From assembly GCF_033153115.1 (NCBI RefSeq), contig NW_026889779.1, positions 33,666,001 through 33,730,000 of the forward strand: a stretch of DNA of 64,000 bases, written 5' to 3'. Each line of letters begins with the position of its first letter. Within the stretch, counting starts at the first letter, position 1. Below, piece after piece: positions 15,404 through 35,334 of the stretch. This DNA is from Saccostrea echinata (Eukaryota). Position numbers and translations under genes: made by a program. The notes under the pieces are model-generated. The model did not search any database. It saw only the letters and a program-made list of their open reading frames with translations, and was not told the origin of the DNA.

Positions 15404-15964
15404 TCACAAATAATGAAGGCTTTTTACGATTTGCATAGTCGATACAATACTTAGATAAAACTTTTGCTGGAAATGGTAATTTAGTGAAGAAGGCTTATAA
15501 CGATTCGAATGATCGACACTGAAAGTATTAAAAACGTTTAATTATTTGTTATCAATCGCATCTTCCCGGGCCTTTCCTGCAAGCTTGGAAAAACAAGTGG
15601 TTGTTTTTCGGCTTGTCGGAAAGGCCCGAGAAATTGCGATTGATTCGTTTTCACTTGGTATCAACCAACAGGAAGAATTTATTTTATTTTACGAAACGAT
15701 GAAATCAGATTGAAATCAACGTTATTGACAGCCTTGCACCTTTCAATATTGCCGTCGATCAAGTCCTCGGTCTTCTCCGATTGTATGTTATCTAAGGATA
15801 AACATGGTAAAAATTAGGGAAAACTGGGGGAAATGTGCTGATTGTGTATTCCTTCTAATTTTTTTAAAGAACAAACAAAAAGCAAGGTATTTCGAGGTAA
15901 CATTTTACCTGCACTTCCTCTGACGAACAACAAAACAAGTAATATACAAGACCATCAAAGACAT
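15404..15964 (-). pseudogene. Secreted prepropeptide family member, frameshifted copy (exons 15964-15909, 15791-15740, 15518-15404)
   Basis: Exons and splice phases are homologous to the 34593-33415 model. Exon 1 is 56 nt instead of 55. Exon 2 reads DNIQSEKTEDLIDGNIES. Exon 3 has NRYKP where the paralog has HRYKR. Confidence 0.55.
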
Positions 15965-18900
15965 TTGCTAAAAATATACAAAAATATTAATGAACTTTAA
16001 AGCGACACTGTGACGGACAAACGGGAAAATTGACAACAGTAGAATTTTTGCATGGCACATGCAAATTTTGTTCAGTTCTTGAAGATATTAGGTTTCAGAA
16101 AATTACAGGTTTCAGAACCTAAAAAATCTAAATTAATGGAGAAAAATAAAAGTAAAATAAAAATCTTTGTAAATATTGCTTCACTTCTTCCTCTTTATTG
16201 TACGCATGCGCTGAAAAGTTGAAGAATTTACCATGGTTTCAATTCCATAGATATAAATGTCGGATGACTGAAAATTTTGATGCAATCTTCAAAAAAGATG
16301 ATCATAACTTATTCCTTACTTCTGCTTGCCCCAATTCAATGTTGTTTACAAGTTCCACGCTAAAAATAAAGGACGCGTGACCTTGACTTTGTTGACATTG
16401 ACGATAAAAACAAAGCGATAGATACAACATTTGTTTTTCCGACACTTATATTTTGCAGTTTTTTTCTTGCTTTACAGTGCAGTTAAGTTGTCAAAACTTC
16501 GCTATATTCATATTTCACAGAAATCTTTTGTTTTGTGATACAATTTTCTTAAAAGAAACACATGGTTTTGACCCATTATGCAACTATAATTTAATTCTGG
16601 TTGTCACGTTGAATTTGATTGGATAAAAAATTTACTTTATATCGTATAAAATGGGTTGCCTACGTCACAATGACTTGCGTCAAAAACGTATCAATCCGCC
16701 TGACGTTACATTCAAATTTTGTACAAATTGAAGTCATTTTTTTTAAGGACAATCATCTTTTTTTCCTACACCAACTGAAAGAATATTAAATTGTATCAAA
16801 TTTATACGGTATAAACTGGGTTGGAACAGTTTACGCTTTTTTATAAACCGCTTCGCGGTTTATAAAGCGTAAACTGCCCCAACCCAGTTTATATCGTATA
16901 AAATGGGTAGCTATTAAATTCATTCCTTAATTAAACGGAAGATATGTGTCTATGCAACATACTAGTATTTAATCATAAAAAATAATAATAATAAAATACA
17001 TTAATAAAAATAATAATTATTAAATATTAAAAATATTAATAAGAAAAAATAGTAAAAAAAACCGTGCGCGTTGAATGCATTTTCTTACCACTCTTAAAAT
17101 TATAATAAGGAATGAAATAGCTTATAAAAGCGAGCAAGAGTTGTTCCTAAAAAAAAAAAAAGAACTTTAAAAGAAGGAGAAAAAACACCTTCCCTCACAT
17201 CAGGGGTTTGCTCATGTATTAAATAAGGAAGAAATAAAATTAGGGATTTCCATCGCTGCAGTTGACCGAGAATTATTTGAGATGACAAAGAGTAATACAC
17301 ACGGATACTCGTGAATACTTTGTGTCCAGTATAAATTCAAGTACCACTTACAGTTCAACGAATGTGACATTTACTTATTTACTCCAGAAGGTCAGGGCTA
17401 AATCAGTGACTCATTGCTCACTCGAATCAACAATATTCTTGCTGGGACGTAAAAGACCATACATTAAATCAAGTTTTTGATATGGTCGAGACTATGGTCG
17501 AGAGACCATAATTTCACCAACCTATGTTTGCTTATTTTTGTGTGACTTACTTATAGCCTTGCTTTTCTGAAGAACATTTTAATATTGAATCAAATCTATA
17601 AAATCCAATCTTTATTTATTGATGCTAATTGTAATACTAAACTTTTACCATACGCTTGAATCTCGAATTTCGTAGCTCGAACCTCGAATGAGCCTTCTGG
17701 TCTTTCGTATTATACTCATCGCAAACCAGTTATTTATTTAATTGTGTTGCAAATGTTTCTTGAATCGCGAAATATATTTGTCACCGATACATTGCAAGCT
17801 GACAAATAAAAAAAAATGTTCCAAATGAAAGTTGGCTTGCAGTATCAAAATGCTTTGAAGAAGTCTTTTATACAACTACTCCACATTATTATTCTTCATT
17901 TTTCAGGAATGGAGCAGCACAAAGCATAACATTTTTTTTTTTAATTTTCATCGAAGATTACCTATGATATTAACAGTTTATCACAATAAAAATCACGATT
18001 ATTTATTATCTTTGACTTGATATATGATATAGACTAAGATGAAAAAATATGTTTTTTATTGTTAAAGCTGATCTTTAAAGCAAAAGAGAGAGGAGTGAAT
18101 CAAAACTTGTCTGTACCAATTTATAATTATATTTTAAAAAATCGAAGCTAGTTGAAGTAAGAGACCATTGGACTGCAACGATCATCTGAGTCACATTGGG
18201 TTAGGCCATTAATGTCCCCCTCCATTTTTTTTGTAATGAAAGTTTTTGTCCTTACCTTGTGAACCCACTCCAGCCCCAATGGATCAAATCAATGCGAATA
18301 CTCTGTGATGTAAGCAGTTAAATTCCATACATAAGTTTGCAGCAATTTTCATAGAAATATAGCTCTATTTTTTTTTAAATTAGCAGATTCAAACATCCAT
18401 TGAAATTCTTAGATTGCCAAATCATGTGAGCAATTCTGATTCACTAGCAAATATAGCCATGCAATAAAATTGTCATCTCAAAGATGGAACTTTACATTAT
18501 AAAAAATTAAAAACTTTCATTATGAATGTTTTTGTGTTATAAATTAAATGGACACAAATAAAAGAAATGACGTGTCATATGACTAATCATGTTACTAATT
18601 AGAGTCATACATTAAGAGTGGACAATAAATATTGCCAGCTGTTTCAAAAATTTGATTGATTATAGAATTAAAAAATGGTATTATAGAAATAACTGGAACA
18701 TAACACATTTTCATTTTTGTCATGAGAAATGTTTTAAAGACATTGGGATAATACATTTTTGCAAAGTGAGATAATTTTTTCTGCTCAATTTTATTCAATA
18801 TTACTCTGTAAGATTGATTGATTGTTGTTTTACGTCTCTTGCAAAAAATTTCCACTCGTGCGAGACGTAATTCTGTTAGAAAAAATGGACCCAAAATCTA

Positions 18901-34884: not shown

Positions 34885-35279
34885 AAGAAAGAAAATTTTG
34901 GATTTCCACTGTTGCAGTTGATCGTTAGGATAGAAATAATAAAGATGCCAAAAGGATTAATACAACGTTGGATTATCTGACGGAAACTACGGATGTCCTC
35001 TAAGTAACAAATACAAGTACCACTAAAAATAGAAATAAAAGAATGATGCAAATATAAAGAAAATCCACAAGGACAGAAACAAGAGAGAATCGAGACTCAA
35101 ATATTGAAATATATGAAAAAAAATCGGCTACATGGATTTGAGCAAAATTACTGGTAATTGAACTAACTCTATGAGTGATGATTGAATATACATATATATG
35201 TATATAATATACAATTTTTATGTATCATATTAGGTCAATGGCTGTTTAGATAATGTGTTTTTGGAGATAAAATATTTAA

Positions 35280-35334
35280 CCTGCACTTTCAGTGACGGAT
35301 AATAAAACAAGTAAAACAGAACCCGTCAAAGACA
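35280..35334 (-). pseudogene. Orphan third copy of the signal-peptide exon, start codon lost
   Basis: GTG TCT TTG ACG...GAA AGT GCA G|GT translates as VSLTGSVLLVLLSVTESA. Same 55-nt length and donor as 34593-34539. Confidence 0.55.

Follow-up and report, generated by a model that had tools for sequence, protein, structure and literature searches.

An unnamed multi-exon gene family of rock oysters, apparently encoding secreted and processed precursors, and its broken copies in Saccostrea echinata

The window analysed here is a stretch of 64,000 nt from the genome of Saccostrea echinata (contig NW_026889779.1, positions 33,666,001 to 33,730,000). It contains three broken copies of an unnamed multi-exon gene family of rock oysters (Table 1): copy B, interrupted by two stop codons, and copies A and C, which are 5' fragments. 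Judged by their sequences, the genes of this family undergo birth and death and their precursors carry a signal peptide and putative convertase sites. Of the neighbours named in the original prediction, two exons of the C1qDC genes were confirmed as C1q by Pfam; these head exons are 68% alike in DNA. The IFI27 label was not borne out: the open reading frame that had received it is small, hydrophobic and partly masked and has no Pfam match at E 0.001. At the left end of the window, an open frame of 954 aa matches DNA_pol_B_2 (E 7e-42) and is probably part of a Maverick/Polinton-type element, and there is a tandem array with a period of about 146–157 nt. The neighbours in the window do not help with the function of the family, most of whose paralogs lie elsewhere.

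Table 1. Copies of the gene family and surrounding features in the window (position 1 is the first letter of the window)
Feature	Position	Strand	Remarks
Copy A exon 1	15909..15964	-	56 nt; one base longer than five aligned relatives
Copy A exon 2	15740..15791	-	shortened homolog
'RYKP' exon of the original prediction	15404..15517	-	outside the family; not homologous to family exon 3
Self-complementary element	15551..15644		about 95 nt
Segmental duplicate of 35271..41741	15899..22043		pieces 67-87% alike; includes copy A exon 1 and the region upstream of it, which match copy C
Copy C	35281..35343	-	degenerate duplicate of exon 1; no ATG; 0.7 kb upstream of copy B
Copy B exon 0	34797..34930	-	putative non-coding exon; 5' start approximate; donor GT 34796; partial homology to the paralogs' upstream exon
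Copy B exon 1	34539..34596	-	ATG 34593; 18-aa hydrophobic signal-type peptide; phase-1 donor
Copy B exon 2	33833..33902	-	pro-piece; phase 1 to phase 2
Copy B exon 3	33318..33517	-	first basic site RHRYKR and N-terminal half of core; in-frame stops TGA 33417-33415 and TAA 33339-33337; phase-1 GT donor 33317
Copy B intron 3	30459..33317	-	2859 nt
Copy B exon 4	30061..30458	-	398 nt, open frame; C-terminal half of core, RKKR site, tail; stop 30063-30061
Pao/Bel-type LTR retrotransposon	22610..29798	-	LTRs 22610-23172 and 29236-29798
DNA_pol_B_2 open frame	2..2863	-	954 aa
Open frame labelled IFI27	5261..5605	-	
C1q head exon	49144..49611	+	
C1q head exon	60517..60990	+	
Tandem array	57489..58529		

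The three signal-type exons proposed originally are indeed homologous: the comparisons of A with B and of C with B beat all 500 shuffles, and exon 1 of A and that of B (34593–34539, 55 nt) both end in GCAG/GT. Exon 1 of copy A has one base more than its aligned relatives and this copy is therefore frameshifted, as had been claimed. Its exon 2 is homologous to exon 2 of B, with none of 500 shuffles reaching the score. Third exons had been assigned to both copies; the one of B that begins with RYKR is family exon 3, but the RYKP exon of A fell away, as 52–271 of 500 shuffles reached its score in all four comparisons. DNA profiles of exons 3 and 4, searched across the window, found only those of copy B. 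The homology of A to the family ends near a self-complementary element located in its supposed intron 2, a partial copy of which is present elsewhere on C30. Copy C, predicted as an orphan exon at 35334–35280, is an orphan signal-type exon with different limits and no ATG, and no exons 2–4 of its own were found in the window. Copies A and C sit at matching ends of the segmental duplication listed in Table 1. As victims of gene turnover, the three copies in the window are nothing out of the ordinary.

Copy B had been described as an intact gene with a 75-aa product. Its exons are real and the three that were proposed can be spliced on paper into 75 aa, but that model is incomplete and not intact: exon 3 contains a TGA and then a TAA in frame, and a fourth coding exon had been missed. 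The product is 75 aa long because of these stops, and the proposed 28-aa mature peptide, which covers the first two helices predicted for a folded domain of ~120 aa, would therefore be a product of nonsense truncation. Besides the two stops, there is no frameshift across 198 codons of copy B, and its tail of 69 aa has a net charge of +13 and Cys as the last residue. Two other readings were rejected, namely readthrough or selenocysteine at the TGA (by the following TAA and by the occurrence of the stop in one of ten copies) and an intronless exon 4 (by the conserved acceptor and a contig across intron 3). The stop of copy B is followed, about 260 nt downstream, by a Pao/Bel-type LTR retrotransposon with 563-nt LTRs that are 99.3% identical and with Peptidase_A17, RT and integrase matches.

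A gene of this family has four coding exons, and intact members encode precursors of ~210 aa (about 200–230), arranged from the N-terminus as signal, acidic pro-piece, basic site, core of ~120 aa, second basic site and Arg-rich tail, the last residue of which is usually Cys. In searches of the same genome, all five candidates found with exon 1 of copy B were matches, as were at least 10 of 13 and 12 of 15 candidates for exon 3 and at least 10 of 11 and 11 of 11 for exon 4. There are at least 10 full exon-3 copies on three contigs, plus fragments. The phase-1 GT donor that ends exon 3 is found in the identical place in 10 of 10 genomic copies, and in two paralogs exon 3 is open beyond the position of copy B's TGA, up to this donor. 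The joined frame of exons 3 and 4 is open in eight of the ten copies; the two with stops are copy B (two) and C29_18.91 (one). The proposed birth-and-death mode of evolution agrees with these copies, fragments and stops.

The long form is carried by ten RefSeq models (P0001–P0010) from S. echinata and S. cucullata, all named 'uncharacterized', most of which are 201–231 aa long and three longer (250, 312 and 363 aa). Intact paralogs have the locus names LOC133196749, LOC133196752, LOC133198047 and LOC133194834. In P0001 (L001, about 6190–6107, minus strand) the upstream exon was read as a 39-aa coding extension before the signal peptide; comparison with the paralogs suggests that this exon is non-coding. 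The 363-aa model is P0007, yet the genomic exon 4 frame of that copy (L021, C33:5122058 onward) stops right after the terminal Cys, like other copies; it also has a 16-aa insertion in the core. Copy C29_18.79 (L055, C29:18786873–18785785) has an open frame and a degenerate look, lacks the second basic site and has a branch pN/pS of 1.69 that is not significant; an additional exon 3/4 fragment lies upstream of it (C29:18789081–18788818). An orphan exon 4, which carries an internal stop and has suffered a deletion, is located 7 kb beyond the window (L004 6990–6710, minus strand; C30:33736990–33736710), and no exons 1–3 were found between it and the next paralog. A candidate locus at C33:32.51 Mb was dropped on inspection, and P0014, a repetitive bacterial protein (E 7e-4), was dismissed as a chance match. 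Outside Saccostrea, a Mytilus relative of 159 aa matches at E 4e-5 and stops after the core, without a tail. No Crassostrea/Magallana or Ostrea protein was among the protein-search matches, the sensitivity of the search being too low to call absence.

Splicing of the long form is supported by contigs from three runs, X1, X2 and X3, whose RNA origin is a guess, as no run is recorded as RNA. A contig from X3, which is 85–90% like copy B, jumps from exon 3 to exon 4 over exactly 2859 nt, as many as intron 3 of B contains. Four 30-nt loose ends of contigs in X1 and X2, compared by eye, match splice junctions of paralogs: those between exons 0 and 1, 1 and 2, and 3 and 4 of C30_33.88 and, for C30_33.97, the joining of its exon 2 to exon 3. 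The exon 1–2 and 2–3 junctions of copy B itself do not occur among the 15 joints listed of 74. A 211-aa family member is complete on one 1002-nt Logan contig. Both X1 and X2 include contigs nearly identical to exon 4 of copy B. Relative to the window, one X1 contig lacks 12 nt of the 3' UTR and has 6 nt inserted in frame in the repetitive tail (window 30011 and 30111), which suggests allelic length variation.

Copy B itself is best read as a recent pseudogene or null allele with disabling changes in an otherwise conserved frame. The changes specific to its branch have a pN/pS of 0.37–0.43 (p 0.006–0.015); thus, copy B appears to have been constrained for most of the branch and to have broken recently. 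During most of its history it was presumably a working gene. The 75-aa product probably does not function as a peptide, and we consider it very improbable that B is a working short gene making the 28-aa peptide, with the TGA adopted as a new end. Such a gene would have a stop found in one of ten copies and placed in the middle of a domain, a second stop behind the first, and an exon 4 of 398 nt that is still open, a sign of recent damage; these features outweigh the facts that B has an intact signal, pro-piece and basic site as well as intact splice sites, and that near-B contigs occur in X1 and X2 (1 difference over 241 nt, 7 over 246 nt and none over 182 nt, in exon 4 or its 3' end). The stop also precedes the last junction by about 97 nt, a distance at which stops usually trigger nonsense-mediated decay, and protein searches, whose queries excluded the 75-aa model, revealed no 75-aa relative.

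The choice between a fixed pseudogene and a loss-of-function polymorphism, with B intact in most individuals and the assembled haplotype bearing a null allele, is a separate matter. Seven differences separate a 345-nt X1 contig from B across 246 nt of exon 4, and the more distant X3 contig shares six of them, so that a divergent haplotype exists. This, together with the purifying selection on the branch of B, makes a null allele possible, if doubtful, given that two independent stops suggest some time since the loss. Such an allele would alter the status of B, not the nature of the family. Assembly errors are a very improbable source of the stops, even with a single assembly at hand: there is not one stop but two, each a base substitution in a non-homopolymer-length context, and other copies nearby (copy A, copy C and, at C30:33.737 Mb, the orphan exon 4) are broken as well.

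Analysis of sequence conservation reversed the pattern of a conserved signal and a divergent mature region that had been proposed for the family. In 45 pairwise comparisons among 10 annotated proteins, mean identity was highest in exon 3 (0.52), followed by the C-terminal half of the core (0.46), the signal (0.38) and the pro-piece (0.31); the tail columns give 0.44 over 36 pairs, in an alignment to P0002 that hides large length differences. Near-invariant core residues include, among others, E53, F57, Y60, W83, Y93, T101, Y104, R128, G137, D139, H142 and W149 (P0002 numbering). The core is under purifying selection: of the 45 pairs that the genomic copies form, 44 have a core dN/dS below 1, and the values for copy B against the nine others are 0.31–0.57. 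Among the six pairs in which tails were tested, dN/dS was about 0.26–0.44 in five and 1.1 in one, with no clear sign of positive selection; distant tails align poorly.

In two AlphaFold2 models, built from alignments of 11 and 15 rows only, the core of ~120 aa is all-helical with pLDDT 81–98 (~90), and the pro-piece and tail are below about 60. Neither sequence nor fold searches assigned this core to a known family. Pfam searches with five exon translations and Pfam/NCBIfam searches with 15 aligned members gave nothing better than E 0.076, a PDB sequence search gave a single match (E 0.26), and in the ESM Atlas exon 3 had matches at 0.84 or lower and the core no usable match. VIA fold searches of 48,161 chains gave no match at Z 8 or above, the best being Z 6.9, with 102 aligned at an rmsd of 5.7, and Z 7.0, with 113 aligned at an rmsd of 4.0, and Foldseek against PDB and viral sets had no match at E 0.001. 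Candidate prokaryotic or metagenomic relatives (151 and 80 pattern matches) were not confirmed in any case. These blank searches do not show that the fold is new.

A second basic site is present in 16 of 22 sequences. It is not clear in two genomic copies and P0008, and three Mytilus proteins have no tail. All 16 tails behind the second site are cationic (36–82 aa, net +7 to +22) and 14 of them end in Cys. A Cys also occurs in the linker just before the second site in 13 of the 16, the other three having one in the core; since the 22 rows are related, these Cys counts represent a pattern rather than 16 independent tests. The amphipathic moment exceeded that of shuffles in two of the 13 tails scored and not in that of copy B (p 0.9); five sequences were left unscored. 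P0005 and P0006 have helical tails that start with GIG and show a significant amphipathic moment, and several other tails are non-amphipathic, low-complexity stretches rich in R, S and G.

A signal-type N-terminus, basic cleavage sites and a cationic product can thus all be read from the sequence. The account that we favour, if with some reserve, is that the family has four coding exons and that its intact ~210-aa members are probably secreted, should according to prediction undergo cleavage at the two basic sites and are likely involved in host defence. The signal would be removed and the protein exported; furin-type cleavage is predicted after the R-x-K-R and RKKR/LKKR sites. The Arg-rich tail would then act on microbial surfaces or polyanions, as other linear cationic peptides do, and may stay bound to the core via a disulfide spanning the second site. 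Beyond any role as a carrier, the core would itself be an effector: the Mytilus relatives have nothing but the core, so it probably has a conserved job of its own. Several observations count against the account: the tails show no sign of positive selection, few of them are amphipathic beyond shuffles, some members have no clear second site or no tail, and many cores are cationic themselves (+2 to +14 in the C30/C33 type), which makes them a poor fit to a charge-neutralising carrier. The earlier suggestion of a defence peptide or toxin is plausible as regards defence, through the cationic exon-4 tail that it had missed; nothing supports a toxin. We infer a defence role because the precursor plan and the gene turnover are common to bivalve defence families, for which anionic pro-pieces, dibasic sites and pseudogenes are typical (PMC5577615, PMC10138031, PMC7203481, PMC10608444; for plan and turnover, also PMC11767717).

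The main rival to defence is a structural or reproductive role, in which the family would likewise be secreted and processed and the tail would bind polyanions in a structural/adhesive protein (of shell, mucus or cement) or on the gamete surface. The selection is purifying rather than diversifying, several tails are of the non-amphipathic R/S/G-rich type and the distribution in Saccostrea and Mytilus is narrow and patchy, all of which would suit such a protein. We nevertheless regard it as rather unlikely in view of the short single tail behind a convertase site, the GIG-starting amphipathic helical tails of P0005 and P0006 and the repeated gene loss.

In vertebrate cathelicidins, a conserved folded domain of ~100–120 aa precedes a variable C-terminal cationic peptide. 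Polychaete BRICHOS-AMP precursors are built in the same manner (PMC10608444). On paper, the rock-oyster family would work like these precursors, apparently without their domains: its core is predicted to be all-helical and has no sequence match to them, is flanked by two basic sites and is tail-less in Mytilus. No BRICHOS or cathelin domain was detected by Pfam in 15 members, and absence from the fold lists does not exclude either family. Centrocins and halocidin, which are disulfide-linked two-chain AMPs, offer another parallel in the possible single disulfide joining two products of one precursor, although they join two short peptides and the oyster family would join a folded domain and a tail by a putative disulfide (PMC10608444).

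Known bivalve systems resemble the family in part. Mussel CRP-I genes share with it a non-coding exon 1, signal, pro-piece, dibasic site and clusters with many pseudogenes, but have three coding exons, a conserved signal/pro region and a six-Cys mature peptide that is hypervariable and positively selected (PMC10138031), whereas the oyster family has four coding exons, a conserved ~120-aa core with 0–1 Cys, and a second site with a cationic tail. The C-C-CC-C-C array of CRP-I is absent (0–2 Cys before the second site, 0–3 in the tail), and the identities given above (signal 0.38, pro-piece 0.31, exon 3 0.52) differ from its conserved signal/pro and hypervariable mature regions. Like the family, myticalins and modiocalins feature a linear cationic Arg-rich peptide freed at a dibasic site, an ATG at the start of the first coding exon and nonsense pseudogenes (PMC5577615). 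Myticalins follow the order signal, cationic peptide, KR and anionic extension, are Pro-rich and have two coding exons and no folded core (PMC5577615); the cationic part of the oyster precursors is C-terminal and not Pro-rich, in the order signal, pro-piece, core and cationic tail, with no anionic extension. Big defensins are also prepropeptides with a furin-type site, and the tails of copy B and C33_5.11 resemble them in having a hydrophobic stretch followed by a cationic one (PMC7203481). The family differs from big defensins in its exon plan and in the absence of a Pfam match and of the C-terminal six-Cys beta-defensin domain, as its tails hold at most three Cys (PMC7203481). Literature searches by accession, motif and topic returned no description of the family; most supplements and subscription papers were outside their scope. 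The family identifiers are absent from one supplement of PMC12564202, which uses its own transcript identifiers, and the covered text of PMC8399951 has nothing on the family.

The helical core has a conserved polar set consisting of E, Y, W, T, R, D and H. A more specific and speculative scheme, which we consider unlikely as it stands, is that of an undescribed two-chain defence protein of rock oysters, in which an orphan helical effector domain would be cut from an exchangeable Arg-rich tail yet stay joined to it by a disulfide. The tail would target the domain to microbes or carry it there, and mussels would have kept the ancestral tail-less core. The case of copy B illustrates how a nonsense codon can make a broken gene resemble a short peptide precursor. 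If the defence reading is true, farmed rock oysters would possess an unnamed effector family, with cationic tails that are ready to synthesise and a folded domain without family assignment, and the family would represent a bivalve case of the 'conserved domain plus variable cationic peptide' plan on an unrelated scaffold.
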